Below, in pieces: positions 45-52,353 of a DNA stretch of 64,000 nt; the stretch's first letter is position 1, and every line of letters starts with the position of its first letter. This DNA is from a virus. The stretch is from positions 1 through 64,000 of IMG/VR virus record IMGVR_UViG_3300025151_000018, one strand, 5' to 3'. The position numbers were made by a program, and so were the translations under genes. The notes under the pieces were generated by a model. It ran no database searches, had not been told where the DNA came from, and saw only the letters and a list, made by a program, of their open reading frames with translations.

Positions 45-3000
45 ATGCTGACTAATGATATTGATGAAGTCAAAGGCTATCTTGAACACAAATTGACCGA
101 TGAACAATTGGCTCAATTGAAGCCCGGACAATACCATGTGAACACAAACTATGAAGATACATCAGGCAATCAGGTTCTATTTGCGGTATGGCTAACTGAT
201 TATGATATGCCAGACCATGTAATTGAGGCTATCAATGGCTACATTCACTTCAAGAAGTTGCTTGAGCAATCTATTGAATCAAGGAATAATGATGATGATG
301 ACGATCTTGAAGAAGCCGATGAGGGTGAAGATATTATTGAGCCTGTATTGACCGAATTGGAGATTATTGAGTCAGAGTTTGAAGAAGATATATTTGATGA
401 GATTGTTGAAGATATTGAGGCTGATGAAGAAGTAGTTGAAGAGCCTGAAACTGATGAAGAATGCAATCATATTCATTGCGCCTATTGCCATTTGGATAAC
501 TGTTGCACTTGTGAAGAATGCTACATTGAGCCAGAGGTCAAAGAAGAAGAGCCAGAGGCCAAAAGAAGCCGTAAAGATATGGATGATAGAGTAGCAGATC
601 TTGAAAGGGCAGTTAATGCACTATTCTTTGATGACCTTGACATTCAAGGTGTTAATAATCCAGCAAGGATAACTGTATTGATTGCTGATATTGCTAATCA
701 CATGGGTTGCTCTGTTGATACTGTCAAGAGGGTGCTTGAACACATGGCGCATACCATTCACATGAATTTGAATAATTACAATCATCAAAATGGTAATGTG
801 TGGCATGATGATAATGGTGAATGGACTACCATAGAATGGCTACCAGAGCATGAATTAGACTATCAGGATAGAATTGTAGTCAAGTGCCAAAGAAGCCCAA
901 CAGGTCGCTTCAAGAGGCATACAGACATTGAGTTTAGAGTCATGGAGTTTAATCATGAAGTTGGATTGTTAGGTGCTAAAACACTACGAGATTATACCAA
1001 TGCACCTTCAAATGAAATATGGGGTCTTGAATCGATCTATCTTGAGAAGTTTCCACCTATGCCATGTCCTAAATGTGGCGAGAAGTTGAGTCAAGGTTCA
1101 TGGCATATTACTGATAGAGGTCAAGGTAATTCTAAGGCTTCAACCGATGGTAATGAAAGACCATTGCGTAATGATGGACTACAACCATTCATTCAAGTCA
1201 ATGTAGGCATTTCATGCTATAACTATGAATGTGATTATGAAGGATTAACTGCTACTAAGAAAATTGACTTAACCGATGTTATTGAGGCTACAATTCAATC
1301 TCAAGGACATGAAGATTACAAAGTTGTAGGCTACAATCCTGATGACATGGATATGACTCAATTCTATGAGGCTGACAATGGATATACCAGATATGGTAAA
1401 GAGCCTATTACAGAGGATTTAGAGGCTATTACAGAGGATTCTAATGATGCTGATGAGGTTGATATTACTCAATGGTATGAATGTCCTAACTGTAATCGCA
1501 ATACTGCCATACCTGTTGAGAATGGTGTTGATTATTGTAGCCATGATATTTGCTCATGGGTTGAAACTGATTGCTCTGTTTGCTTTGAATCAATGGGTGA
1601 ATGTGTATGCCCTGATGATGATGACGATCATGATGATGATGGAGGCATTACAGAGGATTCTAATGATGATGATGGTGGAGATACACCATCAGGTCTTGAG
1701 CGAATCTTTACGCTCAAAGTTATTGATGATAAATTACATCGCATTGAGGATTCACCAGAGATTGATGATGAATCACCAGAGGCATATCTATTACTTGATT
1801 GGGATAAGAAAATACCATACCAAATCCATAATGCAGGTTGCAACCATAGCAACCTATCCAATAACCATAGAGGTCAAATGGAGATAGTCTGTGAAGGCAC
1901 ATTAGAGGATTGTGTCAAGCATTACTTTGATGTTAATTTCTGTGAGAATGCTGAAACTATGTGGGGTAATGAAGAAGGATTCATGGTTGAGGATTTTGAC
2001 CGATACATGGAGATGACTGTTCAACAATTCAAGAATAGCGATATATGCAAAACTACCGTTCATCTGGGCTATGCACCATGTCTTTCAAGCGATTTCAAAG
2101 CGAGGCTCAAAGTCTTGAAGATCGGTGATGTTAGCGCACAAACATGGCGAGCAACCGCAGTTAGAATAGCAGCGCAAAATAACCCTGTAATTGATGATGA
2201 ATCACCAGAGCCAGAACCTGCTACAAGTGATGAGTATGATTCAAGATACGGTCATTATGCTAAGTGGTCTGTTCTAAGTGCTGATGATTGCACATTTGGT
2301 GTCAAAGCGTGTCGCAGGGTGAACAAGGATGTTGTTGTCATAGGATTATCAGATATAGGCAGCGCAGTATCACTTGAAACTGATGAGGCGGTTCATTACA
2401 TGGTTGCAAAGAATAACAATATGCAATTTGTCATCAATAATCTTGAGGATATGCACATAGACCAAAACGAATGGATCGATGATGATGTATATAGTGAAAA
2501 TAGGCATTGGTTTGGCAAAGTAGTAGCGGTTGGTGGCGATGTAGCAGAGTCTGTATTCAGCAACAAAGGAAGCACATCTATTGCTAAAATAATGGGTGTC
2601 CCGGTTGCTACTATTCATGGAGGATTTCAAGAAACTAATATCTTGAAGGCAACCGCAGCGAATTTAACAAAGACTCATCAAATGTATGACATAGCAAGTG
2701 AAACTGAAACAACCGATGTTATCATTAGACCTATGGCTTGTTCTTTCAATTCTATGCACTATCAATGGGGTCATAACTCCGACCAAAATAATACACTACA
2801 TGACATGGCTAACTTTGATGAAAGAGTATTCAAGAAAATGGTGTCAAACTTGATGAAAGGTGGGAAAAATGCTGGTGATGCTCATGGTTATGATTACTTG
2901 AGGTTCTTTGGCACTATTATTGATGCTAAGTCATTCAAGGAGTTTGCAATCGCATTGAATGGTGCTAAGAGTAATGACTCTGGTGTGTCATTGAGGATTT

Positions 3001-5498: not shown

Positions 5499-6035
5499 AT
5501 GGCTATATCTAATGAAGAGCCGAGAATCCCTGTGGAGGTAGTATTCCGCATAGGTGAGAATCCTATGCGTGGTGCTATCACAGGTATGATTGCTCAAAGA
5601 ATTGAAGATAGTTTAGTTGATCCTGTGTATGCAATTATGCCATACTCTGATATTACTAATGCTGGTTGGAAACAGGCTGACATGGTTAGATGCTTTATTG
5701 CTGATGAGAATGGCATTGAAGAAGTGGCGGTTGAATGGACTACAATAGTGCGTGATACTACCCCTGCTACCCCAGAGCAATATGCTGGCTTAGAAGGCTA
5801 TCTTAGAGAGCATGGATGGGATATTACACCTATCAATGCTAATCAAGTCGATCATGCTACTCGCAAGATGGTTAAGAAAAAGAATCCTCAACCAGATAAT
5901 AATTTATTCAGCGATTCATCACAAAATGTTGAGGTAATCACAGAGGAATTTGAGATTACTCTTGATATTGTCAATGATGATATTGATTCTCAATCTGGCA
6001 TTGATAGTGATAAATTCAAGGAGGATTGGGCTTGA
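5499..6035 (+). CDS. Hypothetical protein
   Basis: 178-aa ORF with RBS, in operon. Confidence 0.7.
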   Translation: MAISNEEPRIPVEVVFRIGENPMRGAITGMIAQRIEDSLVDPVYAIMPYSDITNAGWKQADMVRCFIADENGIEEVAVEWTTIVRDTTPATPEQYAGLEGYLREHGWDITPINANQVDHATRKMVKKKNPQPDNNLFSDSSQNVEVITEEFEITLDIVNDDIDSQSGIDSDKFKEDWA

Positions 6036-7685: not shown

Positions 7686-9136
7686 GTAAAATAGAGTTAT
7701 ACAATTGGCAAATTGAAGCAGGTGATGCTATTCAAGATAGTATCGATCAAGGTGATGATGGTGCTGCCGTAGCAGCCATCACCGGGTCTGGTAAAACTAT
7801 GGTTGCTATTGAGGATATGAAGAAGTGGGAATTTAGACATCCAACAATTCATTGTCGCTTTACTGTTGTTGTTCCGACAAAGGCTTTGGCTATCCAATGG
7901 CGAGATGAAATGATTGAGCATGGTGTTGCTCAACCAGAAGAAATTGGTCGCATTGGTGGAGGCTCTATCAAAGGGTGGAAAGAAGGAATTAAGCATAAGG
8001 TCAATATCACTACTATTCAATCACTACAAAGAGGAAAGGGTAAATTGCTACAAATACACAATGATGATTATCACTATGTCATTGTTGATGAATGCCACAA
8101 TCTTAGAGGGGCTAAGAATAGAACCGCTTTAGCAGGTATTCGCACAGACTTTGTATTGGGTCTTAGTGCTACTCCACACCCTAATGATGAAGCAAGACAG
8201 ATCGTTGAGCAGGTAATTGGTAAAATTGTTTATTCATATCGTTATGCTCAAGCATTGGCTGACGGTGTTATTCCGCCTTTCGTGCTAAACTGTGTGAGAG
8301 TTAAGATGGATAGTGAGGAAACCAAAGAGGTTGAAAGGCTATCCAGATCTATCAAAAGATGTATGCAAGATGCTGAATACAATACCAGAGAAGAGAGGAA
8401 TAGACTTCATGCTATTGCTCGCAATCTGGGTTCACAAAGAAAGAGGATTCTTAACCGTGTCAAATCCCGTTCCCACATGGCATTGAGGATTATGGCTCAT
8501 CATGGTGATGTTCCCACCTTACTATTCCATGAGTCCACAGAAGATGTTGATAGGTTATCACAAATGACTCCGCATTTGAATGCAGCAGTATATCATAGTA
8601 ATCACCCTTCTAAGGATTCAGAGTTAGAGAGATTCAAGAATAAGGAAACAAACCATCTATACTCATGCCATGCTTTAACAGAGGGCTTCAATGTTCCCTT
8701 TGTTCAAGTGTCTGTAATGATGTCTGGCTCAAATGCACCACTAAGGAGAATACAAACTCTGGGGCGTTCCCTCCGTGGTAAAAGTGATGAGCCTAATCAA
8801 GTGTATTTCCTTTACATCGATCACAGAAAGGACATTGAAGGATTGCACAATCTAATTGAAACTGCTGACCTGCCACCAGAGGTAATCAAGCACTATGAGA
8901 TGACAGAGGATTGGATGAAGGAATTGCCACCACTACCGAGAAGAGAGAAGTGGATTCCTATTTCACCTAAGAATGGTGATGAAAGACCTAAGTGTGATAA
9001 GTGCGGAAGAACCTTCAAAGGTCAGGTTGGATTAAATACTCATCATTGTGTGCCATCCAGAAAGGGTTGGAATTGGGAGAAGAGTCTTGAAGAAGTTAAG
9101 GATATGACTTTTGATGAGTTTATGAGAGGTTTTTGA
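7682..9136 (+). CDS. Superfamily 2 DExH helicase (XPB/Rad25/UvsW-like) with C-terminal C2H2 finger
   Basis: TGSGKT, DECH, LSAT, EGFNVP, QTLGRSLR; CDKCGRTFKGQVGLNTHH. Confidence 0.9.
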   Translation: MSKIELYNWQIEAGDAIQDSIDQGDDGAAVAAITGSGKTMVAIEDMKKWEFRHPTIHCRFTVVVPTKALAIQWRDEMIEHGVAQPEEIGRIGGGSIKGWKEGIKHKVNITTIQSLQRGKGKLLQIHNDDYHYVIVDECHNLRGAKNRTALAGIRTDFVLGLSATPHPNDEARQIVEQVIGKIVYSYRYAQALADGVIPPFVLNCVRVKMDSEETKEVERLSRSIKRCMQDAEYNTREERNRLHAIARNLGSQRKRILNRVKSRSHMALRIMAHHGDVPTLLFHESTEDVDRLSQMTPHLNAAVYHSNHPSKDSELERFKNKETNHLYSCHALTEGFNVPFVQVSVMMSGSNAPLRRIQTLGRSLRGKSDEPNQVYFLYIDHRKDIEGLHNLIETADLPPEVIKHYEMTEDWMKELPPLPRREKWIPISPKNGDERPKCDKCGRTFKGQVGLNTHHCVPSRKGWNWEKSLEEVKDMTFDEFMRGF

Positions 9137-9791: not shown

Positions 9792-10142
9792 ATGAGTAGC
9801 AAGTTATACTTAGCCTCATACCGGGGCAGGTTCATGGAACAAGAACGGCAGTATAGATACAGAGCCGAATCATGGAAAGAGGTAATGAGAGAGGTAGTCA
9901 TAGACAGAGGCACACTTCTGGGTAGTGCCGAGTTTGAGGAAATGTCTGGTGTTGAAAGAGCCGACAAACTATCTAAGATCGATGATGCACTATCACTATG
10001 CTATGATAACATTCAGAGGTTGGCAAAGAATAGAGATATTGCTATCCCGGTCAAGAGAGGATTCAAGTATCGTTGCAAGAGGATTAGAGAAAAGGTATCT
10101 TCTATGACAGACGATGAGTTAGGAAAGGCAGGTGCTGAATAA
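9792..10142 (+). CDS. Hypothetical protein
   Basis: ORF with RBS, coupled to next gene. Confidence 0.65.
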   Translation: MSSKLYLASYRGRFMEQERQYRYRAESWKEVMREVVIDRGTLLGSAEFEEMSGVERADKLSKIDDALSLCYDNIQRLAKNRDIAIPVKRGFKYRCKRIREKVSSMTDDELGKAGAE

Positions 10143-16362: not shown

Positions 16363-17709
16363 ATGAGTAATAGAGATACAGGAAACGAATGTTTAGAAGA
16401 AGCCAAATCCATTCTTGGGTTTGAAGAGATTGACGAAGCAAGCCTTGCATTTGGCTCGTGGATGAAAGAGAATTTCCCAGAGATGTGGGAAGAAGCGGGT
16501 AATACTGCTGCTAACCTTGACGATGAGGATTTCAACCACTTTGCTGATATGTTTGTATGTTCAATTGGAAGAAGCGCAGGTGGATCAGGTGGCGGTAGTG
16601 GCACAGAATGGTCTGGTATGGTTATTGGCTTTGAGCGCAGATTTGACATGATGGAGAAGAAGCGCAACATGGCTATTGATGTGGCTACGGCTGACATAGG
16701 TATGGCTATCAAAAACGGTTTCAATTACAATGGCAAGAAGTGGGGCATTGGGCGTGTCTATCCAGAAGATGGTGTTTGGAAAGTTGAACATTCTCAAGGC
16801 ACATTCATTTCTAAGGAGAAAGCCGATAGTAGTCCTAATTGGCTAATCCCTCTCAACGAGAGAGTTAAGATTGCAATTCTAAAACCAGACAATACTCCCG
16901 GTATGGCGTATGGTGTCAAGTCCGTATGGGTATTTCATGGTAATACACAGGAGAAGTTTTTGTCCGAAGGGCCGAGAACAGTTATCCTTGAAGGTTCATG
17001 GGAGGCAGCAAAGACTGACTTCGATCTATGGCGACCTATCACGGTGCGTGGAGAGATTGATGAAGAAGGTTGGAATGGCTCTGGTGCTACGCTAACAGTT
17101 AGCAATCCAAATGTGGTCTATGGATATGAATGGATCCCAGAAGGAAAGAAGCGAGAAGCAGCAAAGGCACTATTTGCACCAGAACAGTATTTGGCTACAA
17201 CAGGTGATGCTTGTATCAATCTAAAAGATGTCATTGACTACCACGAGGATAACAAGAAACCTGCTTATGTGGATAAGAATGGAGTCCAAAGATACAATGG
17301 TGCATTGGTCTGTGTTGTTGGTGGTGTAATGGATATTAACCACGAGGGTAAAGAAACCCAATGGGATTCAACAGGCAGGGATTTCTATCTATCAATTAGT
17401 AATCAGGTATTGCGAAGGGAAAACCCCAATGCAAGAGTCGGTGTCAAAGTTAGTGGCGTATTGCATGACGACCACCATGCTATGGAGATGAAGAAGAACG
17501 GTGAATGGGTCAAGTTTGCTCGTGGTTCTCGTGTCTGGGTAGTTGGTCGCACTAATGTCTATCAAACCACAGACGGTGAAACAAGAGCCAATGTTGAGGC
17601 AGTTGGTATCTATGCCGTTCCTAAGAAATCTATTCCGTATCAAGAGCCATCGGCTGACTCTAATGATTTAGGCAACCTAAATGGCTTCGGTGTCGGGGGT
17701 GATTATTGA
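16363..17709 (+). CDS. Probable multi-OB-fold ssDNA-binding protein (RPA-like)
   Basis: Beta-rich, GSRVWVVGRT OB-like pattern; lies between RFC and the recombinase. Confidence 0.5.
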   Translation: MSNRDTGNECLEEAKSILGFEEIDEASLAFGSWMKENFPEMWEEAGNTAANLDDEDFNHFADMFVCSIGRSAGGSGGGSGTEWSGMVIGFERRFDMMEKKRNMAIDVATADIGMAIKNGFNYNGKKWGIGRVYPEDGVWKVEHSQGTFISKEKADSSPNWLIPLNERVKIAILKPDNTPGMAYGVKSVWVFHGNTQEKFLSEGPRTVILEGSWEAAKTDFDLWRPITVRGEIDEEGWNGSGATLTVSNPNVVYGYEWIPEGKKREAAKALFAPEQYLATTGDACINLKDVIDYHEDNKKPAYVDKNGVQRYNGALVCVVGGVMDINHEGKETQWDSTGRDFYLSISNQVLRRENPNARVGVKVSGVLHDDHHAMEMKKNGEWVKFARGSRVWVVGRTNVYQTTDGETRANVEAVGIYAVPKKSIPYQEPSADSNDLGNLNGFGVGGDY

Positions 17710-19699: not shown

Positions 19700-22044
19700 T
19701 TATTGAGGCACTTGAACAAGATACATCAATGGATATTTTTCTCCGCTTTCGTGATGAAACGGGGAATGTGATGGAGAAAATTGTTGAGAAGGTTGAACCG
19801 TATTTCTATGTCCGTATGGAGGACATTGATGACATATTGCAGAGGTTTGAAACATCAGGATTGCAATATGGAGTTGGTTATGAAACAGGTGGCTATTGGG
19901 CTTTCAATCCCGATGACCCTGAAAACCCTATTGAATTGATGATGATTACTTGCAGTAAAACTTCTGATGTTAGAAGGCTGCGAGATTTGGCTATGGAATC
20001 ATGGGAGGCTGATGTTGATTTCAAGGACAGGTATCTTATTGACAATGTTCCCTTAGAAGATATGCCAAATTGGTATGACTACATGGTTAGAGCAGGTGGC
20101 TTCGATCTTGAATGGAATAGAGATGAAGAAATAACTGCTATGGGTTTCACCACAAATGGTGAACAAGTCCATCAATGGGCTTGGCATCCTAATTTACCAC
20201 AAATCAATCGGTCATGGATTCAACCATATTGCTTCTTCTTTGAAAATGAAAAAGAAATGCTCATTCATTTTGCTGATTACTTCTCGGACTTAGATCCAGA
20301 CATCATCACAACATGGGCGGGTAATCGTGCTGATTGGCCTATGATATACAAGCGATACAGGTTTCATGAATTAGATTTGGATTGGTTATCTTCAATACCT
20401 AACAGACAATCTGGTATGACTCCACCAATGAAGCCATTACCGAGAGATGGTTCATATCAAGAAGGCACACAAGTTGTGTTAGGTCGCTTAACATTAGATT
20501 TGGCTGACAGGAATCATGGCTTTGAGCGTGTATGGAAAGATAGTGGCAACGGTCAATTAGGAGATAGAAGATTGGGTTCTGTTGCTAAAGAAGCATTCCC
20601 CGATAATCCCGAATGGTGGAAAGTGGATTTTGAGAATGACCCAGAGTTAGAAGGTAAATGCGATAACCACCACGATCTATGGCTACACCACTTCAACAAA
20701 TTCCTTCAATACCATAGGGGAGATGTGCTACTAACAGATAGGTTAGACCGAGCATATCATGTTGGGAGATTCTTTAGTGCTTTACAGGCGGTTTGTGGCG
20801 TATCATACAAATCTGTATTTACAGTTAGTAAATTCGCCAGAGGTCAATTGCGAAGGCGAGCCAAATACAAAGCCCCATCAGCAAATTACAATTTACAGAA
20901 GCAAGGCTATCCCGGTGGCTTTGTATCAAAACCAAAAGGTGGTCGGCATCACAATGTAGCGGTTCTTGATTACAGAGCCATGTATGCTGAAATACAGAGG
21001 GGAGGAAATATCAGTCCTGAAACAAGAAGGAATGCACCGGGCAAAGACATCAAGCAATTACCCAACGGAACATATTGGTATCAAGGTAAAGTCGGCATAT
21101 TGCCACAGTTGCAAATGGATTTAGCCGATGCTCGCAATAAAGCGAAGGCGGAGATGAAGAAGCATGAGGCAAGTAGCAACGAGTATGCAGGTTTCAATGC
21201 TTTGCAGTTGGCGTATAAGAGAGCAGCAGCGAGTTGCTATGGTCTGATGGGTATGGAGGGCAACGGTGAATCCGATATGGTAGTTGCATCAACAATCACA
21301 TTCATGGGGCGTAGCCTTGTTGAGAGGTTAATGGAAATATGCGGTGAAATGGGTTATGAGCCACTTGCGGGTCATACGGATAGCGCATACATCGGCATAG
21401 GCGATGCTGACGGTGATAAAATTGCTAAGGAATTAACCAAGCGCATACAAGAGGAATATGACTCTGATCGGTTCGTTGTTGAGTTTGAGAAACTAATGAG
21501 GTCATGGGTCGCAGCGAATGATAAGAAGAATAGAAACTTCGGTTGGTGCATACACCCAAAAGAAGGATTACATTGCACAGGTTTTGAATTGAAGAAAAGT
21601 AATGCAGCATCCATCACAAAGCGTGTGCAAGAAGAAGCATTCATTTCATTGTGTCGTGATGATGGCGACAGAAAAGCGATTGATGATATTGTATTCGGTG
21701 CTATTGATGAAGTGAAGAATGGCAACATTAGCGTTGATGAAATCACAATGTGGGGCAGGTTAAGTAAAGATCCAGAGAAGTATGGTAATGGAAACTTCTG
21801 GGGTGCAGCAGCCAAATACAACAAAAGGAATGATAACAAATTCAAATCGGGTGATAGCGTTCCTCACATTTACACCACAAAAGGCATAGAAGCATATCAA
21901 ACAGATGAAGATGCTAAGAAATTGCGAGTTGATTGGACTACTGTTATATCTAATCAAATTATAGCCCCTGTTGCGCTCATTTACGATGCAATGGGATGGT
22001 CGCAACCAGACGCATCGGGGGCGAGAGCCAAGCCATTATTTTAG
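19696..22044 (+). CDS. polB: Family B DNA polymerase
   Basis: ExoI FDLE, ExoII WAGNRADW, ExoIII YHRGD; polymerase motifs DYRAMY, KRAAASCYG, GHTDS. Confidence 0.95.
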   Translation: MIIEALEQDTSMDIFLRFRDETGNVMEKIVEKVEPYFYVRMEDIDDILQRFETSGLQYGVGYETGGYWAFNPDDPENPIELMMITCSKTSDVRRLRDLAMESWEADVDFKDRYLIDNVPLEDMPNWYDYMVRAGGFDLEWNRDEEITAMGFTTNGEQVHQWAWHPNLPQINRSWIQPYCFFFENEKEMLIHFADYFSDLDPDIITTWAGNRADWPMIYKRYRFHELDLDWLSSIPNRQSGMTPPMKPLPRDGSYQEGTQVVLGRLTLDLADRNHGFERVWKDSGNGQLGDRRLGSVAKEAFPDNPEWWKVDFENDPELEGKCDNHHDLWLHHFNKFLQYHRGDVLLTDRLDRAYHVGRFFSALQAVCGVSYKSVFTVSKFARGQLRRRAKYKAPSANYNLQKQGYPGGFVSKPKGGRHHNVAVLDYRAMYAEIQRGGNISPETRRNAPGKDIKQLPNGTYWYQGKVGILPQLQMDLADARNKAKAEMKKHEASSNEYAGFNALQLAYKRAAASCYGLMGMEGNGESDMVVASTITFMGRSLVERLMEICGEMGYEPLAGHTDSAYIGIGDADGDKIAKELTKRIQEEYDSDRFVVEFEKLMRSWVAANDKKNRNFGWCIHPKEGLHCTGFELKKSNAASITKRVQEEAFISLCRDDGDRKAIDDIVFGAIDEVKNGNISVDEITMWGRLSKDPEKYGNGNFWGAAAKYNKRNDNKFKSGDSVPHIYTTKGIEAYQTDEDAKKLRVDWTTVISNQIIAPVALIYDAMGWSQPDASGARAKPLF

Positions 22045-22052
22045 GTGATATT

Positions 22053-24301: not shown

Positions 24302-24310
24302 GGGGTAATT

Positions 24311-24553: not shown

Positions 24554-24560
24554 TGATAGA

Positions 24561-26789: not shown

Positions 26790-26796
26790 TTATGAG

Positions 26797-26875: not shown

Positions 26876-26886
26876 CAGGTGATAAA

Positions 26887-28373: not shown

Positions 28374-28418
28374 ATGCTTATGTAAAGGAATATGTTGGGT
28401 AAAAATCCGAGGGGTGAA

Positions 28419-30905: not shown

Positions 30906-30906
30906 A

Positions 30907-31044
30907 ATGAGTATGTGCAAGGAATGCGGTCATGCGATTAGTGTGAGGAATACAAGAACATCAAGAAGCAAAAGAGAAAGCATTTGCGGTAAATGTTATC
31001 TGCATCGTAAGGCGAAAGAGAGAAAACTCAAGGGTTTGGCTTAG
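30907..31044 (+). CDS. Zn-finger microprotein, last gene of the + strand block
   Basis: CKECG...CGKCY. Confidence 0.6.
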   Translation: MSMCKECGHAISVRNTRTSRSKRESICGKCYLHRKAKERKLKGLA

Positions 31045-32285
31045 AATAGCCTTCTTTGCATTTCCGACATATCAACAGTATTTGGGAAATTTCTCAAACC
31101 AATCATCTCAACCTTTGCTTCTTTGTTGCCTTTTGGTTTCCTAAGCCAAGGGTGTATTGTCATATCAGCATCTTGTGCAGCATCTATGAGATTATACATA
31201 GGTTCACCGTCTTTGTCATACATATAGTTGGAATAAATGACCGGGCCTTCTAACTCTGACGCTATACGCAGGGTATCTCTTTGCAAATCATCAAAGGTCT
31301 TGCCCTGCAATTGCTCTGCCGAACCGCCATAAGAAATATCTCTCCCCTGATATGGTGGATCTAGATAGGTAGTGTGCTGCGGTGTCAAAAACTCTGATGT
31401 TTGTCTTAAATCACCTGTGTGTATATCAACATCTTTCAATCTGGCAGCATAAGGGTCAAGGTTGATTGAGCCAACATCGTGTGGCATATATCTAACGCTT
31501 GAACTTCTAAATGAGCCTTCTGCATTAGGTATCTTGATTTTCCCCTCTGTGTATGGAACGGCAGGTTTTTCACCCCAATCTTCATAGGAAAACATACCAT
31601 CTCTGTATTGAAGGTTTGAACCAACCAGCAAATGAGCAAGCCTCATCAAATCATCATCGTCTAATTTTTCACCCATCACATCTCTCCGATAGCGTATTTC
31701 ATTCAATTCATTCATCATACGCACTTGATCATCATAATCTTGGGCTATATTCACATCACCCATGCCCTGTTGTAGTTGTGTCATAAGATTCGTCATATCT
31801 GGGTTAATATCGCCATATAGACCCCTCCCCTGATTCATTCCCAAAATGTATGAACCACTACCACCGAATAATTCAGCAGGTATCTTATCTTTACCAGCCA
31901 TTTGTGATAAGGCTCTCAATTGTGGTGCTATTTGCGTTTTGCCACCAATCCAATTGACTACCGTTGGCAACATCTCGGTTTCAGGGTTTGTAAAACCGGG
32001 TAAAGATGCAAAGATTTTGTTGTAATCTCCACCCGCCTTTCTCGCTCTCGCCATTTCAGCCCACGGCTTACCCCTTCTTTTGCCACCATCACCAAAATTT
32101 AACTCTGGTAAAATACCCGTAGTTGAAGTTTTGTTGGCCTTTGCGCTATTGTATCGTTCTAAAATATCCTTAATCATGGGGTCTATCTCGTCAATACTCT
32201 CGTATTCTTTCCCTCTGAAACTAATACTTTTCATCAGATCCCACGCATGTTGGGCTGCACGATCATGGGATATAACACCACGCAC
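31041..32285 (-). CDS. dam: Dam-like (alpha/D12 class) N6-adenine DNA methyltransferase with N-terminal extension
   Basis: NWIGGKT, ELFGGSGS, DIN, YLDPPY; likely GTG start at 32285 after GGAGG (ORF is open to 32333); ends QRRLF. Confidence 0.85.
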   Translation of the reverse strand: MRGVISHDRAAQHAWDLMKSISFRGKEYESIDEIDPMIKDILERYNSAKANKTSTTGILPELNFGDGGKRRGKPWAEMARARKAGGDYNKIFASLPGFTNPETEMLPTVVNWIGGKTQIAPQLRALSQMAGKDKIPAELFGGSGSYILGMNQGRGLYGDINPDMTNLMTQLQQGMGDVNIAQDYDDQVRMMNELNEIRYRRDVMGEKLDDDDLMRLAHLLVGSNLQYRDGMFSYEDWGEKPAVPYTEGKIKIPNAEGSFRSSSVRYMPHDVGSINLDPYAARLKDVDIHTGDLRQTSEFLTPQHTTYLDPPYQGRDISYGGSAEQLQGKTFDDLQRDTLRIASELEGPVIYSNYMYDKDGEPMYNLIDAAQDADMTIHPWLRKPKGNKEAKVEMIGLRNFPNTVDMSEMQRRLF

Positions 32286-32286
32286 A

Positions 32287-32475
32287 TTATTCCCTCCGAT
32301 GCCAATGCCGTGATAGACCACCATGCTCGGCATCCATCATTAAGTCCATATCGTTCTCAATAGGCTCTATGTCCTCCGAAAAATCAAACTTAATGGTTAG
32401 TGCATAAAGGTATAATGCAACCGAAAAGATTATAATACATATAAGCACCGAGAGCGCACCGAAAATTGAAATCAT
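32287..32475 (-). CDS. Small membrane protein
   Basis: N-terminal hydrophobic helix. Confidence 0.55.
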   Translation of the reverse strand: MISIFGALSVLICIIIFSVALYLYALTIKFDFSEDIEPIENDMDLMMDAEHGGLSRHWHRRE

Positions 32476-32914: not shown

Positions 32915-32915
32915 A

Positions 32916-34118
32916 TCAGAACCCCGAATGCGTGTAATAAAACCTAACATGACCGGGTGGATTGATGGGTGCTGCTGGATTAACATAGGGATTAGTCTTT
33001 GTTGTAGCCAAATCAATCATGGTGATTACATTTCCAGCGACTGTAAAATCAACACCCTCATATAAATTTACACTAACATCCATTCCAGAGTCAAACCATG
33101 TCGCCACGATTAGGTGTGCTGAACCCGCAACAGGGTTTATTGGATCAGGAACTTCTGTCGGTAGTGGTTGAAAGTGTAGTTGTATCGGACCCGGTCCTGC
33201 ATAGGGATAGGTTTCTATTGATTGACGGTGAACAGGTGTCAATTGATATGCACCACCTGCCCCCGCACCTACTGCTGCATCTGATTGATAGAATAGATGT
33301 GTTTGACCTTCACCGTGATGTATGCCACTTGTAGCCACTATCGCAGGGCTATACCCTTCAGGGTTTCTTGTATAGAATATACCCAACCCAGATGTGGGTA
33401 ATGAACCCGCACCCAAAGCAGGGCTTGTGATTAGATTGTTAATTGGGTCTGTTCCATCACCAGAAGCATTTACCATAGCGGTCAATGGGTATGGCCCGCC
33501 ACGCATGAATACTCTCTTGTCCTCAACAGAGGCTACAACGGGTGCTGAACCACCATAGGTGATTCTCATAGCAGCAAGGATAACAGATTGTTTCACTAAC
33601 TGTGATGATGGCATTTGTGGGTATTGCCCTCCGCCTGTATTGACCTTTTGACCGCATACCAATCCAATGTTATTTGTCGCTGCACCCAACTCTGGATCGA
33701 CTATAACAAGCACCCAACATTCCTCATTCAATGCACTTGGCAATCCCGCAACACCCAAAGGATTGAAGCGAGCGTTGTATAATCCAGCAGTATCAACATC
33801 AAGTGATGATGCCGAGCCTACTGTGTAATACATTCCATCTAATGCTACTATACCTGCATCAACAAAGAATGATTTTGTGCCACTTGTGTTCTTTCTCACA
33901 CAACAATTACCAGAGATAGGGTTATTACGATCAGAACCACCAGAGTCCTGTGAATAGTTATTCAAGTTTAGGGGTATGACACCATTCAACAACCCTCTTT
34001 CTGTAAAGTTGGTTAATGTTGCCGTTGAGAGAACATCACTATCACGCAATCCATCGGATTGCCATGTAGCACCTGTCGCAGTTTTCTCATGCCCTTCATT
34101 TAGTCCTGTTGTTCCCAT
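32916..34118 (-). CDS. Virion structural protein (tail tip/fibre-associated)
   Basis: G/S/P-rich beta protein at the end of the tail cluster. Confidence 0.55.
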   Translation of the reverse strand: MGTTGLNEGHEKTATGATWQSDGLRDSDVLSTATLTNFTERGLLNGVIPLNLNNYSQDSGGSDRNNPISGNCCVRKNTSGTKSFFVDAGIVALDGMYYTVGSASSLDVDTAGLYNARFNPLGVAGLPSALNEECWVLVIVDPELGAATNNIGLVCGQKVNTGGGQYPQMPSSQLVKQSVILAAMRITYGGSAPVVASVEDKRVFMRGGPYPLTAMVNASGDGTDPINNLITSPALGAGSLPTSGLGIFYTRNPEGYSPAIVATSGIHHGEGQTHLFYQSDAAVGAGAGGAYQLTPVHRQSIETYPYAGPGPIQLHFQPLPTEVPDPINPVAGSAHLIVATWFDSGMDVSVNLYEGVDFTVAGNVITMIDLATTKTNPYVNPAAPINPPGHVRFYYTHSGF

Positions 34119-34459: not shown

Positions 34460-37400
34460 CTAACTCACCCCGTAAAATACGGACTTTGATTGCCCTACGG
34501 GTTGCCCCCTCTTATGGATAACCCTTATTTCAGCACCATTCGGCACTAATACTGCGTTGTTCGCAATGAGCGTGATAGTATTTGCTGACAATGCACCCGG
34601 TCCAACCACACCAACATGAAGCCATTGATCGTAATCTGTCGCAGCACCTGATGATGTAGTGGCAGCGACCCTAACCTCTATGGAGTCGCCATTTGCAATA
34701 CGGTATCTTGAGTCAAGCGTTCCTACCGCTATTGTGGTGGTGCTACCTGCGGGGTGATCTGCGGTTGAATATACTCCTGTGCGACCACCGCTAACACCTA
34801 TGTTTCCTAACGGGCGACCCAGATTTGTAGTGGCATTGGTTCTCCAACCCGCCCCCAGAGCCATGCTACTGTTGTTATTCATTCTAACAACAACACGAGA
34901 TGATGCAAGCACCCGCACAGGTGCGGAGAAAATCAAATCAATCAAGTCCTCAAGTGTGGTGGCATCTGTGCTACTTGTTTCTGCTGATGCTGATTGCAGG
35001 TCAGCGATTAAACCCTCTATGCCCTTATCATATTGACCTATCACCAGATTTGTTAGACCTGTTGTGAAATTGGTGTATGTTTCAAAGACGGCAAACTCTC
35101 CCTTGATGCCCTCCATGACAAAATCAACACCGATAATATCACCCGGCTCAATATCCTGTGCTTTTGCCAGCCCTTCAACACGAAGTATAGAAGAACCTTG
35201 TTCAGTCCTTCTCATCAATCTCTTTGCAAGTTTCAATCCTTCTTTCTTGCTCTTTAAGCCCGGTAGCGTTTGTATTAGTGTGCGCTCTAAGCCTTCTCCG
35301 CCCTTGCCACCCATCTTTTTGATGTGTTCCATGTCTTTGACTTCGGCTATCACAGTTTCATTCTCGGCAACTGTGTCGCCATGTATGATAATGTGGTTTG
35401 CCCTCTCCATCATAGCACTAACTTCAATCAACTGTGGTGCGCTACTTGAACCGACCCTACGATCAGAGAGGGAGAATGCTTCTTCTGTGTAAAGAAGGAC
35501 TCCACCATCACCAATTACTAATTGGCGACCATCCATTTGTGAAAAGTGTCTTAACAAGTCCATGATAAACAGACCCTTGCCTGTCCTATTGACGAATGAA
35601 TCACTATGTTGCATTGTGTTATGGAGAGATGGGTGTCCTCCGAGCATTGACAATAGAGATGTTTTACCATAAGGCTCAAAGCCCATAGAAATAAAGATTG
35701 GATCGGGGTGTATTACTTCAACCGCTTCTTTGTATGTTTCATAATTCACCAAATCAGCACCAGATATATTGTGCGTAATGTCGTTAAGCAACATCAAAGC
35801 AGCGTCAGTAGTCCTAACACCGACAGAAATGTTGTGTCCTAACCTTATCCCCTCAATAGTCATACCAGAATTGGATAGTGTGTTTTGTTGAAGGTTTCTA
35901 AAAATCAAGTTGTTGTTTTTATCTTTACCAGCAATTCTCCACTTCTTATTTTTACCATCATACAAGTAATGTGGCGTAGTAGCATCTTTAATTGTATTGC
36001 CATCAACATAGACTTCATTCAAACCACCCGTTCCGGGTTTGTTGATGTATGACAGACTACCCCCTGTTTCACCGTCTGTTATGGTGTAGCGTTGGGCTGA
36101 AAGCATACTAAAATCACTTGGATCATAATGCCCTAATCCCCGATAGGAGATATTAGGTGCATACTCAACACTATCATTAGGTGATGTGCCATCCCATTTG
36201 TCTGTATGATAAGATGCAACGGTCATAGCATTATCAACAAGAGAAGGAACAATCACCAACTTCTGTGATACCGAATGGATATTGTTTTTGGTTGATTTGT
36301 ATGTGTTATCCGTTCCCCTTAGCATTGTGTCTTGGGCTATTTCAATTAAAACCGTAGCGGAGAATCTAATTGAAGTGGGTGAGGGGAATGCTACAATCGT
36401 TCCGACTACCCCGTTCCTTGTGCGTATGACTTCGCCAATAGAGAATACTTCGCTTGGGAATTGTTGTCCTACATTCGGTGTTCCCGAACCTGACGACCAA
36501 TTTGCACCAACACCTGTTAGTGTATCTGTTGAACCTGCTGCTACGGTTGCACCTGCATATATTGAAACCCCTGTTCCCATATTTTTACCCGGTCTAACTG
36601 TCATGCCAACAAGATCAGTATCTAATGACAAATCCCCTGTTGCTGGTGGTGCGCTTGGATTAAGATAGAATGTGGTTCTCGTTTTATTACTGTATGTGAA
36701 TTGCCCTGACTTGCCTATAACAATTAGTGTTCCCGAAGGAGGGAAACCGCTTGTATCTTCAACTTCAATGTAGCCACCAAAAGGCGAAAGTGGTGGTTGC
36801 GGTGCTGACTTGACAATCTTGCTACTAACACCTAACACAGTCAATGCAGTTGGGGTTTGCTTCTTGATTGCTACATTATTCTTTGCTGCCATAGCAAACG
36901 GTCTTGTAATCTCTGCGTGATTTGCTTCACTTTGCGATACTTCTTCGCCACCGCCCGGATGTGTTGATTGAGAATACCTTGCATCTGTATCAGCGTGTAT
37001 TATTCCTTGCCCGTCAGTCCGTGAAGCATCGGATTTGAAATGTTGTAGCATATTCGCTGATGGTATTAGATGCCAAACCACATCACGGTTGTTTGCATCA
37101 GGCCAATCAATTCTAACACCGCCCGAATTTAGGCTACTTATTGGAATCATAGGCGAAGTGCGTTCCTCATTCAACTCAAATATACCATATCTGTTATCCC
37201 TATGGAAATGCCCTGCATTGCCAACCTTAGCATTCGGGCCTAACAACCAGCCATCTGGGTGCTGGATCGAATTGCTCTGCCCTCCTGAAAATGCAGTTAT
37301 CTTTAACGGTCTAACCGCCCTAACAACATAGTCCACATATTTTCTAACATTTTGACCTGCCTCTGATGACAAAGGATCGAATGAATGATGTTGGCTCAAG

Positions 37401-43633: not shown

Positions 43634-46600
43634 TCAAACCCCCCAATTTTTCTGTCCTATTGTCATGGCTTCTTCAACCGATAGAGCCTTCACCCATAAT
43701 CCTAACTCTGCTAACTGCCCCTTGAAATAGGTTCTTGCACGAGATGTTAATGAACCAGCCGTCTGTGAACCACCTTGACTGTTTAGATTGTTGTTGCCGT
43801 ATTGTAATTGTGCAACAGTCCAAAAACCTCCCTGTATTGTAGTGTTATCCGCCAATTCTTTGATTGAACCCCATAGGCCACTTGGTGATATTACCATTGG
43901 CACACCATGCAGGGCAGCACCGATTACAATTTGCCCTTGATACCTACCATAATATGTGCTTCCACTTGCTAACGGATTTGCATTCGTTCCTGTTCCAAGA
44001 CCTTTAGCGAGTCTTGGCATTCCTACTTGACCCCCCAAATATGTTGCATCATTGTTAAGTGGGTATGTGTTAAACGATCCACCGTATAGATAATCACCTG
44101 CGGTTTCTGTGTTTGGCATAGGCACACCATTGTCATAGATAATAGGTGTTCCATCAAGTGGTTTAACCACAGTAATTTGCCTCCAAGCATCTTTTACTGC
44201 CACACCATTCGCCCATGTCGCATGATATTCTCCTGACGCAGCACTATTCTTATGATGGACTACAATTCTATAATCAAATTGTGCATTAGCATCACCAACT
44301 GCCGTCATACCATATTGCCTTGATAAAATTGACACACCCCAAGGTGCGCCATTGTTGTCAATACCATGCAATACAGGCCCGTTTCCATATCCCGATAGTT
44401 GCCATGTGGTATCGGTTGCGTTTGATGGTTTGAAACAGAAGGTGATACTCCAAGGCCCTTGAGCAAGAATATCCCCTGCTCTTGGGGGTATAGTCGGAAC
44501 AGGGTATGACATGGCAGAGGACTTTGTTGGTATTTTTGATAGCGATATTGCCTTATGACCCGAACCGCCCATATCCCAATGAATACCTCTTGCTGATATG
44601 TCGCCTTCTGGCTCTGTTCCAGAGCCTTTGTATAGTGGCTTACCAACTGCCGATGCCTCATTATCCCCTAATAGTATAGAAAAACCTAATGTGCCATTAT
44701 TGAGCAAATCATTTGTAAAATCACCAATCATACCCAATTGCAATCCATATTTGTTTTCAACAGGGCGCATCACAGGTAAAGAACCGGGTGGATCATCTCC
44801 ATAATCAGGCCCACCGTTGCCATCGGGGTCGCCAATGTATGGCAATCCATCATTGTTGAAACGGACATAGGCAATACAATCATCATCTTTGTAGTGCATT
44901 CCCGCATAGGAGTTTGCCTTCGCAGTATCTTGATTGTTTAATTTTGTGAAGTCTAAAACTGCTGCTGATTTTTGTATTTCCTCAACATTTTGCAACCCGC
45001 TATATCCTGTTGGCCCTTTAGAATAATGGTGTGTATAGAAGTCAGAATAATCATTGTCTGTTCCATCACTAACATCAAATGTGATACCTGTATGTCCTCC
45101 ACCAAAGAATAAGATGCCATGAGCGTCAATCATTGGCGATAGTAGTTGGATTTCAACACGCTGATACCTACCATCTTTGTCATAAAACAAATCCTTGAAT
45201 TTTTCTTTGAGTTTTGAGTCATAAGGCTGAACATCCTCTAACGCAGCACAAGCACCCGGTCCAGATACTTTGCAAAATGGTGCGCTAAATGTGCTTACGC
45301 CACCAAAAGTTGCAAGGTGCTTGCCATCAACAAGAATTAGTCCACGCCTATCAAATTGGTTAATGTGGTTCGCTCGGTTCAGCATTTCTAAAATATCCCT
45401 ATCCACCCAAAGCGTAGCCTGTGTATCAGGATCGTAGTCTGGTAGTAATTCAGCCGATGCAGTTGGATTTATTGCATTGTATCTTGGGTTCTTTACTGTA
45501 AAGAATGTCAATTCTTGCCCTATTCCCTCATACAACCGTAGTTTGTTGTCTTGCGTTTCAACAGAACCAACAACCGCACCTGTAAATGTGGTAATAGGAA
45601 CATGAGTTTCACCGTCAGCACCTATTGGTAGTGGTGCAGGGAATGAATTGATTTGATAGGAACGGCTATTTGTAGTCAGCAGCCCACCGCTACCAATTGC
45701 CTGTTGCGGTCTATACCCATAGGGGCTATTGTTGTTGAACCATATAGCGAAGTTTCGTGATGAAGCACCGGGTATTGTGCTATGAATAACGATAGTCATT
45801 CCCGATTCACCATCTCTGCTTTCCACTTCTTTACCCTCAAATGCTCTAACATAGCCCATGTGTGAACCTGTATCTGTGCTTGATGTAGCATAGAAATCAT
45901 CATTTGGCATGGCACTATACGATTGAGCAAATAGTGCAGGTGGATTGAAAGCACTACCTCCATTTGTGTTAGTAGCATTAGGGTGCGCTGCTTGATTGAT
46001 TAGCCTAATGACTTCATTTATGCCTTGATTGAAATCATCAACATTTGTTGCTACTTCACCAAAGTTAATGTGCATTTTTTGCACATGGTCTAAAGTTAGG
46101 TTATCGTTCTTCTTGCCCTTTAGACCAAGATAACTCGGTATCAATTCAATGGGCGGTCTTAATGGCATATCGTCAGCACCGTAGTAGTAGTGCATAGGGT
46201 CTAACTGCATACCCTCCATGCTCGGCCCATCTTTGATTAGTATTGTATTAGAGTCTTTAGGATCGAGCATGACTCTGGCTTTGCCATCGTTGCCAAGCCT
46301 CATGCCAAATAACATCTCAACACTTCTCCCAATTTTCTTCACCAAAGACAGAGCATCGGTTGTGCCAACATCAAATCTCAAATCATCTAAATTCCATGCC
46401 GTTTGCGCCCCTGTTTGAAATGAAGCACCTGTCAGCCACCCGCCCATGACAACAGGCAATCCACTTGAAATGAAATGACCGACAAAGTTTGATTGCGTTG
46501 GATCGGCTGATGATGTATTGTCTAATGGATTGTGAAATGCACCATAATAGAGTCTGTGTGAATTACCAACAATAGCAACCTTGTGTATGAAAAGGCGTAT

Positions 46601-49549: not shown

Positions 49550-52353
49550 ATATCAACTCCGTATTTATCTTCAAGGTGTTGTAGCACTATTTCATCTTGC
49601 TGATCTGTCATGCGTTTAGGGAATACCATAATCTCATGCACTATGAAACCGGGCGGTGCTAAGTCTGTCAAGGTCGGTGTCGGACCGGAATGTAGCATTT
49701 TACCAAACATTTCAAATCCAGAATCTATTGGATTCGCATGATCGAACATCAATGGCGAAGTTGGTGTATATCCGTTTATGTTAGTATGTCCTTTAGCAAA
49801 GGAAAGACCCGATTTGAACATACCATATTCAATCATGTTATTGCTCTGGTCTATTCTAATTGACAGTATATGAGGGTCGCCTTCTGTTGGTTTTACACTT
49901 GCGATAGGGCTACCTATGCCATCAACATCAACTGAAAACTGTGTGCCAGCCGTATTGATTCTAATGTCTATGTTTTGATTACCTGCACTATGAAGAAGCG
50001 GGAAAGAGTTTGACCCATCATACTTTGGAGTTATGACATAATAGAAAGTCCAATTACCATCAGTAGCATCTTCACCATTTATTGTTGAAATAGGCGAACC
50101 TGTGCTTGGGTCTAAGTTGAATGGCATTGGAGTTATCCCATTTACCGTTGGGATTCTAACTGTTGTTCCATTTACAAACGATGAGCCACCATAATAGAAT
50201 TGCCCTGCTGGATAACTCGGTGCTACTGTCGGTGATGAAATTGTCGGTGAACCACCCGGCAAGTTTGACGGCCCATGAGTTTGATACAGACTTCTAATGG
50301 CTTCTAACCCCGATCTGCCTCTAACATTATCGCACACCTTCTTGAATTTCCAACCATCTCCCCAACCAAATAACGCATAATTTTCGTCAGATGTTAATTG
50401 TGTTGATGGTGCTTTATTTCTCCACCAATGAACAACCATTCCATCAAATTTAGCGATTTGACCGTTTGCTTGGTATAATGTATTGAAGTCATTTGCATCA
50501 TACCATAATGCCAAATCCTCAACAAACGGTGGTTGTTCAGCCAATGACTGTGATGGTTGCCCCTGTGCAAACATATTGTTGGCTAATCGTGATTTGGGTG
50601 CAAACCAATAGGCATGGTTGCCATTACCACTAACATCACTAAATCTTTGCGATTGCGTGAACCTTGCCCTTGTGTATTGTCCTCTTGGTCTTGTTAATTG
50701 CCCTGCGACAGAGGCATCGGTTTGCTCTGTGCCGGGGTCTATCGTTAAATCTCCATTTCCTAACACAAACCACACAGGAGTATCATCGGGGTGTTCAAAC
50801 AAGAACCCCTGTGTTTTAGGCTCATTTGCTACTAAACCTGTTGCGGGGTCAGATGATAGAATTGTGCTTTGTATGACGACACATGGTGGCCTATTGACAT
50901 AGCCACCTAACACATCACCAGCATTGTATGACTCATTGAAATTAAATTCTGGCCCTAAACCATAACCACCCGCCAAACCACCCTTGAAATCTATTGCTAC
51001 AATACGGACTCTTTCTATTGGGTTAGACATAGGATCTAAGTTAATCGCACCTGCGGTGTAAATGTCGTCATTCACCGTATCTGTCTGTGAAGCAAGAGGG
51101 CTTCTGTGTGTTCCTGTTATTGGGGATGTTCCTGATGCGTTAATTACTGCGTTTAATGGTGAAATGTGGATAGCCTTGTCAAAGTATGATGCCTTTGTCA
51201 ATTCATTTGACAAATCAAGAATACCAGACTCCCACCACGATTGCAACGGCAATTCTTCAACAGGGATATTTAGAAGATAAGATGCTAATTTTTCATAAGC
51301 CGAAGGTTGCCTTGGGTCAATAGGACTTTCTAAAGAATCTCTGATTCTAAACCAACCATATTGATTACCTGCTGATAATGTTAGTGGATCAGCAGCACCT
51401 GCAACGGTAGCACCCGATGGTGCTATGCTATTGAAGTCATAACCCAAACAAACCATAGGTAAAGGCATCAACCCCTCTGATTTTTCACGCACCGCACCAT
51501 CTTTACCAGATGATGGGTGCAATGGGTTTTTGTTGTTATAGAAATACACTTCTGGTATATCTATTTCATCTTCAAAATTCCATAGACCTGCGGTTTCGCT
51601 TGTTTTTGTTAGTGGTCTTAGCATTGGATCTATGACTCCCCTACTAACCCTAACGCTTTCTATTACGCCTCTAAATTCTCCACCCATGCCACCTATGAAT
51701 ACATCAGATGAAAATGAACGGACAATCCTATCCTCTCCGCCAAAATCAATTTCGCCAACTAAATCCATGTTAATGTATATTCTCATTTTTTGGCGGGTGA
51801 ATTGTGCATTTACATACAACAATTCTCTTTGAGGGAGAGTCAAATCCTCTGGTCTATACTTTGAATATGATTCATTCATCCCATCTATAACCATAGCACC
51901 TGAATATACATCATATTTATTGGCATTGGTGCTACCGAATGCGGGGTATGATGTGGTTGAAACAACCCTCTGGCTTTCTTCTTCTCCGTTTGGTGATAAA
52001 GTATGCACATCAAAGATGGCTCGCCCTTTATTTCTAACATCACCCACCTTCAAGGTATAGCAATTGGGTTTGTGTAATACAACACCACCCATGTCAGGAA
52101 TAATGTATGCTTCAATAGTGAATGCACCTATCATGTTATTCAATGTATTACCCTCATTAGGAATGTGATACATACCTATTTTGGTTTGATTGCTCTCATA
52201 ACTCTGTGTTGCATTTGCAGCCCCTGTTTTTTCTGGGTGATCAGGTGAAAACATATCAACACCAGACTCTGCAAAAGAGCCTGTTGGCACTACCATCCCA
52301 TCAGTATAACCATTTAGGCGAACCGCTTGTGAAAAATGAGAGCGAATAGGCAA
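49546..52353 (-). CDS. Tail protein with LamG-like domains
   Basis: FTIEAYI...FRGVIESVRVS; LALWYDAND...IVHEIMVFPKRMT. Confidence 0.7.
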   Translation of the reverse strand: MPIRSHFSQAVRLNGYTDGMVVPTGSFAESGVDMFSPDHPEKTGAANATQSYESNQTKIGMYHIPNEGNTLNNMIGAFTIEAYIIPDMGGVVLHKPNCYTLKVGDVRNKGRAIFDVHTLSPNGEEESQRVVSTTSYPAFGSTNANKYDVYSGAMVIDGMNESYSKYRPEDLTLPQRELLYVNAQFTRQKMRIYINMDLVGEIDFGGEDRIVRSFSSDVFIGGMGGEFRGVIESVRVSRGVIDPMLRPLTKTSETAGLWNFEDEIDIPEVYFYNNKNPLHPSSGKDGAVREKSEGLMPLPMVCLGYDFNSIAPSGATVAGAADPLTLSAGNQYGWFRIRDSLESPIDPRQPSAYEKLASYLLNIPVEELPLQSWWESGILDLSNELTKASYFDKAIHISPLNAVINASGTSPITGTHRSPLASQTDTVNDDIYTAGAINLDPMSNPIERVRIVAIDFKGGLAGGYGLGPEFNFNESYNAGDVLGGYVNRPPCVVIQSTILSSDPATGLVANEPKTQGFLFEHPDDTPVWFVLGNGDLTIDPGTEQTDASVAGQLTRPRGQYTRARFTQSQRFSDVSGNGNHAYWFAPKSRLANNMFAQGQPSQSLAEQPPFVEDLALWYDANDFNTLYQANGQIAKFDGMVVHWWRNKAPSTQLTSDENYALFGWGDGWKFKKVCDNVRGRSGLEAIRSLYQTHGPSNLPGGSPTISSPTVAPSYPAGQFYYGGSSFVNGTTVRIPTVNGITPMPFNLDPSTGSPISTINGEDATDGNWTFYYVITPKYDGSNSFPLLHSAGNQNIDIRINTAGTQFSVDVDGIGSPIASVKPTEGDPHILSIRIDQSNNMIEYGMFKSGLSFAKGHTNINGYTPTSPLMFDHANPIDSGFEMFGKMLHSGPTPTLTDLAPPGFIVHEIMVFPKRMTDQQDEIVLQHLEDKYGVDI

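Follow-up and report, generated by a model that had tools for sequence, protein, structure and literature searches.

Restriction-site avoidance is a general strategy of prokaryotic viruses (PMC6286503). In the HF1 group of haloarchaeal tailed viruses palindrome avoidance is complete, and words including GATC and CTAG have been removed outright (PMC7230728), while archaeal tailed viruses more broadly either carry a phiCh1-type Dam methyltransferase and keep GATC or have neither (PMC8651126). At the level of the enzymes, TaqI fails to cut TCGATC in Dam+ DNA, except in the sister duplex in which the methyl group is positioned outside the recognition sequence (PMC5145175). Here we describe a virus genome, IMG/VR record IMGVR_UViG_3300025151_000018, in which the word TCGA has been purged except where it overlaps GATC, and we consider a viral mark on GATC, with a Dam-like methyltransferase gene as its candidate source. 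The window, that is, the whole stretch of 64,000 nucleotides analysed, comprises positions 1-64000 of the record; the entire contig has 100,888 bases and is called G000 below. Its remaining 36.9 kb (64001-100888), which were outside the view of the sequence-only reading that first reported the pattern, were used as an independent replicate.

The genome resembles each of these systems in part. As in the HF1 group, many 4- to 6-base palindromes appear to have been fully removed by selection from host nucleases, and the set varies among relatives. However, no overlap-conditional exception was described for that group (PMC7230728), and G000 purges 47 words while keeping GATC. The choice between methylating and avoiding is also recognizable, as a viral Dam-type enzyme goes with GATC retention in G000, whereas a related contig without GATC (L076) showed no Dam homologue in its 14.8 kb. 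The published relation ties the enzyme to its own motif (PMC8651126), whereas here one mark would exempt overlapping words and would let the marked base be deduced. The blocking of TaqI and similar enzymes by overlapping Dam methylation follows the same logic, since one N6-methyladenine (m6A) inside the site is enough, and the same word set is shielded in this clade. It differs in that we observe an evolutionary footprint in an uncultured archaeal virus and not an enzyme assay; moreover, in some relatives the shield reaches CTAG or CGCG through the cytosine of GATC, and in two others (G006 and G007) TCGA is unshielded. A limited literature search returned no description of purged sites whose exemption depends on overlap with a methylated word.

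The sequence-only reading had listed 13 TCGA sites in the window, all of them in TCGATC or GATCGA, and had called ACGA, CCGA and GCGA very common. Exact counting returned the identical list, with six TCGATC and seven GATCGA, and gave 103, 180 and 170 copies of the three sister words, respectively. The surviving sites are as follows.

1032..1037, surviving TCGA in TCGATC
2474..2479, surviving TCGA in GATCGA
5848..5853, surviving TCGA in TCGATC
7743..7748, surviving TCGA in TCGATC
8817..8822, surviving TCGA in TCGATC
9977..9982, surviving TCGA in GATCGA
17021..17026, surviving TCGA in TCGATC
20102..20107, surviving TCGA in TCGATC, one of only two also kept in the relative G001
33695..33700, surviving TCGA in GATCGA
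37265..37270, surviving TCGA in GATCGA
37375..37380, surviving TCGA in GATCGA
46261..46266, surviving TCGA in GATCGA
49740..49745, surviving TCGA in GATCGA

About 115-170 copies of TCGA were expected in the window (114.9 under a second-order Markov model). When the expectation of a first-order model was divided by context, GATC-overlapping TCGA was seen 13 times against 18.4 expected, and non-overlapping TCGA was absent against 123 expected. The same model gives an overlap chance of 0.13 per site, in agreement with the roughly one in eight of the earlier estimate, and hence a probability of about 3e-12 that all 13 sites overlap GATC. The replicate behaved identically, as all five of its TCGA sites overlap GATC, which brings the whole genome to 18 out of 18.

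We also compared the genome with a codon-preserving null in which every protein sequence and the codon usage of the genome are kept. Under this null 267 copies of TCGA were expected in G000 against the 18 seen. The non-overlapping class had 0 copies against 233 expected, while the GATC-overlapping class had 18 against 34.7. Its ratio of 0.52 is near that of GATC as a whole, of which G000 has 226 copies and which stands at 0.59. GATC-overlapping TCGA thus acts like any other GATC. As the purge goes below a null that keeps both proteins and codons, TCGA has been removed through synonymous choice.

Relatives were compared as polymerase-centred loci and as whole contigs with 55-80% polymerase identity; genomes are labelled G001-G007 and G410-G413, and polymerase-centred loci or contigs carry L-numbers. 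For the tally of survivors, near-identical contexts were collapsed, and only sources with the word at less than a quarter of expectation were admitted. In 659 kb of TCGA-purged related contigs, 91 of the 92 distinct TCGA survivors overlap GATC, and the lone exception lies in a short contig-end stretch that also holds two ACGT. The relatives fall into three states. In the first, TCGA is purged and its survivors are all in GATC overlaps (41/41 in G003, 15/15 in L002, 13/13 in L011, and likewise in L014, L017 and others); the L002 contig holds 18 overlapping TCGA against 18.9 expected. In the second, comprising G001, G002 and G410-G413, TCGA is unpurged. In the third, comprising G006, G007 and their group, it is purged nearly without survivors (one, against 305 and 231 expected). 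The positions of the survivors are little conserved, as 10 survivor sites of G000 align to G001 and only two are kept there, which argues that the rule was re-created by selection and not inherited.

The exemption is not confined to TCGA. Across the clade the shielded words are TCGA, ATCGAT, TCATGA, TCWGA, TCCGGA and TCGCGA, which are the classic Dam-overlap-sensitive sites of supplier tables; besides TaqI, the sensitive enzymes in these tables are ClaI, XbaI, BspHI, BspEI, NruI and Hpy188I. For TCWGA, the copies seen over those expected inside GATC overlaps were 11/10.4 in G002, 10/12.8 in G004 and 6/11.3 in G005, and those outside were 0/69.5 in G002, 0/102.6 in G004 and again none in G005 (0/70-103 across the three). 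ATCGAT in G413 stood at 11/11.9 inside and 0/13.7 outside, and TCCGGA in G412 at 6/5.5 and 0/19.6. In the G006/G007 pair, TCWGA was found at 5/10.8 inside against 7/95.9 outside and TCGCGA at 3/1.6 against 0/13.6. Of the factors common to the survivors of these words, a GATC mark alone accounts for them.

The genes referred to in the comparison with G001 and in the search for a writer of the mark are these.

31041..32333, minus strand, divergent Dam-family (D12 class, alpha order) N6-adenine methyltransferase gene, 430 amino acids at longest, the best candidate writer, hereafter the Dam-like gene
22988..24301, plus strand, MT1, beta-class methyltransferase with TSPPY
24561..25715, plus strand, MT2, beta-class N6-adenine-type methyltransferase with SDPPY, PF01555, with CcrM and DpnA-type relatives, second candidate writer
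Genome 91137-93605 (L047:7137-9605), minus strand, outside the window, 823-amino-acid protein with a Dam-like N-terminal domain (KWAGSK, DPPY) fused to a GP88 domain
L020:15235-17043, in G001, 603-amino-acid C5-cytosine methyltransferase occupying the place of MT1 and MT2 in G000
L021:2427-3563, in G001, divergent C5-type gene (SPPCE and ENP motifs) occupying the place of the Dam-like gene in G000

The closest relative, G001, is 94% complete and runs collinear with G000, with which it shares about 70-77% nucleotide identity. It retains TCGA and CTAG, both purged in G000, at near-normal frequency (174 and 185 copies). Of the words that it purges, ATCGAT was at 0/21.1 outside and 0/14.8 inside GATC overlaps, and TCATGA at 0/17.9 outside and 1/7.7 inside. 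G001 therefore has no GATC shield and is a natural control. It is without the Dam-like gene, MT1 and MT2, and carries the two C5-type methyltransferases listed above instead, while it retains an 817-amino-acid Dam-like/GP88 homologue of the 823-amino-acid protein. This exchange of genes between the two genomes looks like cassette swapping between a strategy of methylating and one of avoiding.

To learn which base is marked, we divided the overlaps into an in-site A class, in which the A/T of the overlapping GATC falls within the purged word, and a C-only class, in which just the end C:G pair of GATC is common to both words. For the strongly purged palindromes of G000 taken together, 2 copies were seen against 2495 expected where there is no GATC overlap, 25 against 49.9 in the in-site A class, which equals the general GATC level, and 2 against 34.7 in the C-only class, where CASTG, CCWGG, CGWCG, CGSCG and CTSAG were all at zero. 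Protection was thus confined to overlaps with an in-site adenine in G000; this was not so for CTAG in G002, G004 and G005, nor for CGCG in G003. The retention of the in-site A class next to a nearly unshielded C-only class favours m6A, and we consider it likely that the GATC mark of G000 is this base.

We propose that the virus marks its own DNA at GATC, most likely with N6-methyladenine, and that the most likely writer would be the Dam-family methyltransferase at 31041-32333. The hosts would carry many sequence-specific nucleases, one of them reading TCGA, and selection would strip TCGA by synonymous codon choice except in GATCGA and TCGATC. In these two contexts the methylated adenine of GATC would be, on one strand, the adenine of TCGA, and cutting would be blocked; the shielded sites would then bear no extra cost and persist at the ordinary frequency of GATC. 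The biochemical premise, already drawn on by the sequence-only reading, that overlapping Dam methylation blocks TaqI agrees with the resistance of TCGATC in Dam+ DNA (PMC5145175). Four elements of this account are inferences: methylation as the nature of the mark, A as the marked base, the identity of the writer and the existence of a host nuclease for TCGA.

The product of the Dam-like gene, which the earlier reading had placed at 31041-32285, was upheld as a Dam-family protein by its domain, motif order and relatives, with 31041-32333 as the longest open reading frame. It scored 47.5 bits against PF02086 (cut-off 22), the best stretch being profile positions 1-63 only. Motif I (ELFGGSGSY, residue 156) lies upstream of motif IV (YLDPPYQG, residue 325), which is the alpha-class order, and both motifs are invariant in seven homologues. 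In a search of solved structures with the family profile the best match was DpnM, a GATC m6A enzyme (E-value 2e-7, aligned through the target-recognition hairpin), followed by Escherichia coli Dam; phmmer with the single protein found no match among the solved structures, so that the profile search was needed. Similarly, a single-protein search of viral contigs found no relatives of the Dam-like protein, and an alignment query found them. Foldseek of the predicted model gave E. coli Dam, DpnM and T4 Dam as the best matches, with probability 1.0 and template modelling (TM) scores of 0.55-0.60 on the target, at a mean predicted local distance difference test (pLDDT) value of 61.

The presence of this gene was compared with a shield index, defined for purged words only as the in-site survivors divided by the product of expectation and GATC ratio. 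The index was 0.8-1.5 in the carriers (G000, G003, G004, G005, G412, G413, the L002 contig and, apart from TCGA, G006/G007), and all seven lineages with long contigs carrying the Dam-like gene are shielded. It was 1.1 in G002, the contig of which stops shortly before the Dam slot; in L005, a close relative, the 3' end of the Dam-like gene is present at that slot. Among near-complete genomes (at least 90%) without the gene the index was 0.06 (G001) and 0.29 (G410). This association, drawn from few independent lineages, is suggestive, and it weighs more than the evidence from the protein itself.

The C-termini of the window methyltransferases read QRRLF, QQTLF and QTTLF (Q-x-x-L-F), and that of the family B polymerase (PolB, 19696-22044) reads KPLF; Q426 and L429 do not vary in the seven Dam-like homologues, which end in F or Y. 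Such tails would fit clamp binding, which would speed re-methylation after replication. In the middle, target-recognition parts of MT1 and MT2 (about 23541-24137 and 24815-25320, respectively), close-strain contigs from other marine metagenomes either join across the region or diverge within it while keeping the same length, which weakly suggests, from single metagenome contigs, strain-level swapping of specificity regions.

We are highly confident that a GATC-specific DNA mark of some kind causes the pattern, and we judge it probable that this mark is imposed by the virus, probably as m6A, and shields the overlapping sites. Several observations count against this explanation, some bearing on the mark and others on its writer. 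GATC that does not touch any purged word stands at 0.66 of the codon-preserving expectation in G000, which is unexpected for a word under full protection. Collateral loss from purged neighbours was tried as the reason for the deficit and is only partly true, as the 0.66 remains where none touch; the unshielded G001 and the host genomes show the same GATC level as G000. The persisting under-representation of GATC would suit an account without any modification, in which the nuclease dislikes GATC flanks, a GATC-binding viral protein occludes the sites or GATCGA is itself functional; we find this very improbable, as the unrelated words TCGA, ATCGAT, TCATGA, TCWGA, TCCGGA and TCGCGA have GATC as their sole common flank, G001 purges ATCGAT and TCATGA without the exception, and only 2 of the 10 aligned survivor sites are kept there. 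Chance, base composition or a mutation bias such as CpG decay can claim that, at sites homologous to TCGA of G001, G000 mostly has TCAA or TTGA (52/106), which are CpG transitions. However, the probability of about 3e-12 in the window, the recurrence in the remaining 36.9 kb and among many relatives, a deficit of 0 against 233 that is beyond reach without selection, and hosts that keep TCGA at 1.06-1.15 of expectation leave this account practically no probability, and it is already refuted by the counts. A more substantial difficulty is that in the relatives all nine distinct CTAG survivors and, outside the G006/G007 group, seven of the eight CGCG survivors share just the C of GATC, which in-site m6A does not explain, and that these C-only survivors are near full frequency (3 CTAG against 4.7-5.3 in G002, G004 and G005, and 5 CGCG against 8.2 in G003). 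A mark on the cytosine of GATC (N4- or C5-methylcytosine), instead of or besides m6A, would protect TCGA, CTAG and CGCG alike through the shared C. MT1 has TSPPY, a motif typical of N4-cytosine methyltransferases, and L011 and L019 have a C5 methyltransferase at the place of MT2 in others, which could supply such a mark. Nevertheless, it fits poorly in G000, where the C-only class is at 2 against 34.7 and the in-site A class at the full GATC level; furthermore, the L002 contig has CTAG survivors and no MT1 within 32 kb, and the CTAG and CGCG numbers are small. We regard a cytosine mark as improbable. For the CTAG and CGCG survivors, either the nucleases sense m6A in the adjoining base pair or those lineages also mark C. 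Finally, in G006/G007 TCGA inside overlaps is unshielded (1 against 38.4) despite a Dam homologue of 61% identity. As these two genomes shield TCWGA and TCGCGA, GATC must be marked there too, and the TCGA nuclease of their hosts must differ.

With the m6A mark as the preferred explanation, the question of its writer is less clear, and we lean only slightly towards the Dam-like gene at 31041-32333. The proposal of the sequence-only reading that this gene methylates GATC stands insofar as its presence tracks the shield, but it meets shielded relatives with another gene in the slot: G411 (51% complete, index 0.83) and the incomplete contigs L011, L012, L017 and L019 have a divergent C5-type gene there, and the sequenced, incomplete portions of G411, L011, L012 and L019 showed no Dam-like homologue. 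The protein also falls below the NCBIfam dam (TIGR00571) cut-off, at 42.2 against 114.85 bits, so that by profile scores it is best classed as a divergent Dam member and not a standard Dam orthologue; in its model the pLDDT is below 50 over residues 244-280, the DNA-reading hairpin, which is too uncertain for specificity residues. In addition, G000 has three further methyltransferase candidates (MT1, MT2 and the 823-amino-acid protein). That the mark is real and another enzyme writes it, namely MT2, the Dam-like domain of the 823-amino-acid protein or a host Dam, appears unlikely to us, though it is the strongest competitor. MT2 has DPPY and CcrM/DpnA-type relatives and is found in most TCGA-shielded lineages (G000, G003, the L002 group, L004, L014, L016-L018 and L070). 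It was favoured at first, since G006/G007, which are without MT2, leave TCGA unshielded; yet both shield TCWGA and TCGCGA. MT2 was rejected as a necessary writer, as G002, G004 and G005 are without it and fully shielded, and L076 combines an MT2 homologue with the absence of GATC. The 823-amino-acid protein bears the canonical Dam motifs KWAGSK and DPPY and is conserved in G001 (as two open reading frames in G004 and G006), but it was ruled out, since G001 carries the 817-amino-acid homologue without the shield. As for a host Dam, of 401 Poseidoniales genomes only 56 had D12-class methyltransferases above cut-off. With the genes in so few hosts, a mark of host origin could not be relied on, and complete exemption needs a reliable mark; this favours a virus-encoded writer.

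TCGA is one of many purged words. The window has no copy of ACGT, AGCT, CGCG or GTAC and one of CTAG. In G000, 47 palindromic words of 4-6 bases were below 0.1 of the codon-preserving expectation, most of them at zero, for example ACGT, AGCT, GTAC, CASTG, CCWGG, CGWCG, CTSAG, GCSGC, GTWAC, AATATT, ATGCAT, GAATTC, GATATC and TTTAAA; palindromes lying so far below this null are what defines restriction-site avoidance. About 1 Mb of related sequence contains neither AGCT nor GTAC. Close relatives do not all avoid the same set of words, as the retention of TCGA and CTAG by G001 shows. Some palindromes that contain GATC itself are also purged: CGATCG in most genomes (0/8.8 in G000), TGATCA in G003, G004 and G005, and AGATCT in G006, G007 and G411. 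These three get no protection from the GATC mark. In L076, an IMG/VR contig, GATC is fully purged (0 against 33 expected), yet MT2-like and C5-type methyltransferase genes are present.

The two exceptional sites of G000 among CTAG and CGCG both lie in GATC overlaps within genes named above. The sole CGCG, at 92546, is in GATCGCG inside the gene of the 823-amino-acid protein. The sole CTAG is the following.

31358..31364, sole CTAG of G000, in GATCTAG, within the codons TAT-CTA-GAT-CC of the YLDPPY catalytic motif of the Dam-like gene

A CTAG at the same place recurs in the 39-40%-identical Dam-like homologues of L002 (about 20646), G004 and G005. Among the relatives, L018:7271-7394 is a short island with two ACGT and a non-overlapping TCGA, and G005 has one at about 23418-23646 with an ACGT and a CGCG; these islands could stem from recent acquisition or from chimeric assembly.

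Gene products of the window include a family B DNA polymerase, an RFC-like clamp loader, a primase large subunit, a helicase and a tail tube protein, and the closest GenBank virus polymerases are from haloarchaeal tailed viruses, at 23% identity. This gene content and the polymerase relatives fit an archaeal tailed virus, whose hosts are presumably Marine Group II archaea. We searched 401 genomes of Poseidoniales, which were retrieved with a Marine Group II 16S probe and whose record titles confirm the assignment. The sequence-only reading had proposed a TCGA-specific, TaqI-like restriction system in the host. The TCGA-specific part is supported by the purge (0 against 233), but the TaqI endonuclease family (PF09573) was found in none of the 401 genomes while it was found in the control genome, that of Thermus thermophilus, and this too belongs among the points that count against the proposed explanation. 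The M.TaqI-type target domain PF12950 was above cut-off in 8 of the 401. In 80 kb from each of four Poseidoniales genomes TCGA was at the level cited above, AGCT, CGCG and CTAG were low and GATC was at 0.51-0.62; the TCGA level neither supports nor refutes a TCGA system. We infer the host TCGA nuclease from the purge; it would be TaqI-like by behaviour, and its membership of the TaqI family is unsupported.

Alignment of PolB against genome contigs gave no match, and thus no virus contig in the bin of a host genome. The stretch or its close relatives occur in marine metagenomes of several studies. Contigs of four public runs showed about 1460 differences over 20001-40000, and 0 of the 40 listed create a purged word, which is too few for a test. 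The part 31340-32006, inside the Dam-like gene, has little or no contig cover in these runs, a gap that proves nothing.

The explanation predicts that viral GATC is m6A-methylated, that the methyl group is written by the gene at 31041-32333, and that the host TCGA nuclease is blocked by a single in-site m6A and is not a TaqI homologue. As a tentative extension, in which we have limited confidence, one GATC mark may act as a multi-target shield, whose footprint would read out the marked base, the restriction specificities of the hosts (the 47 purged words) and the methyl-sensitivity of their nucleases. Marine Group II archaea and their viruses abound in the ocean without having been cultured, and their defence and counter-defence have so far been beyond bench study. 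If the extension is true, these archaea would possess two or more TCGA nucleases that differ biochemically and lie outside the TaqI family, along with nucleases for CTAG or CGCG that respond to m6A in the flank or to a second mark on C, and new nuclease families could be predicted from viral sequence alone. By the overlap rule, orphan viral methyltransferases could likewise be matched from genome sequence to their target sites, and even to the base that they modify. Since close relatives differ in whether they purge, shield or self-methylate, these strategies are evidently swapped quickly.

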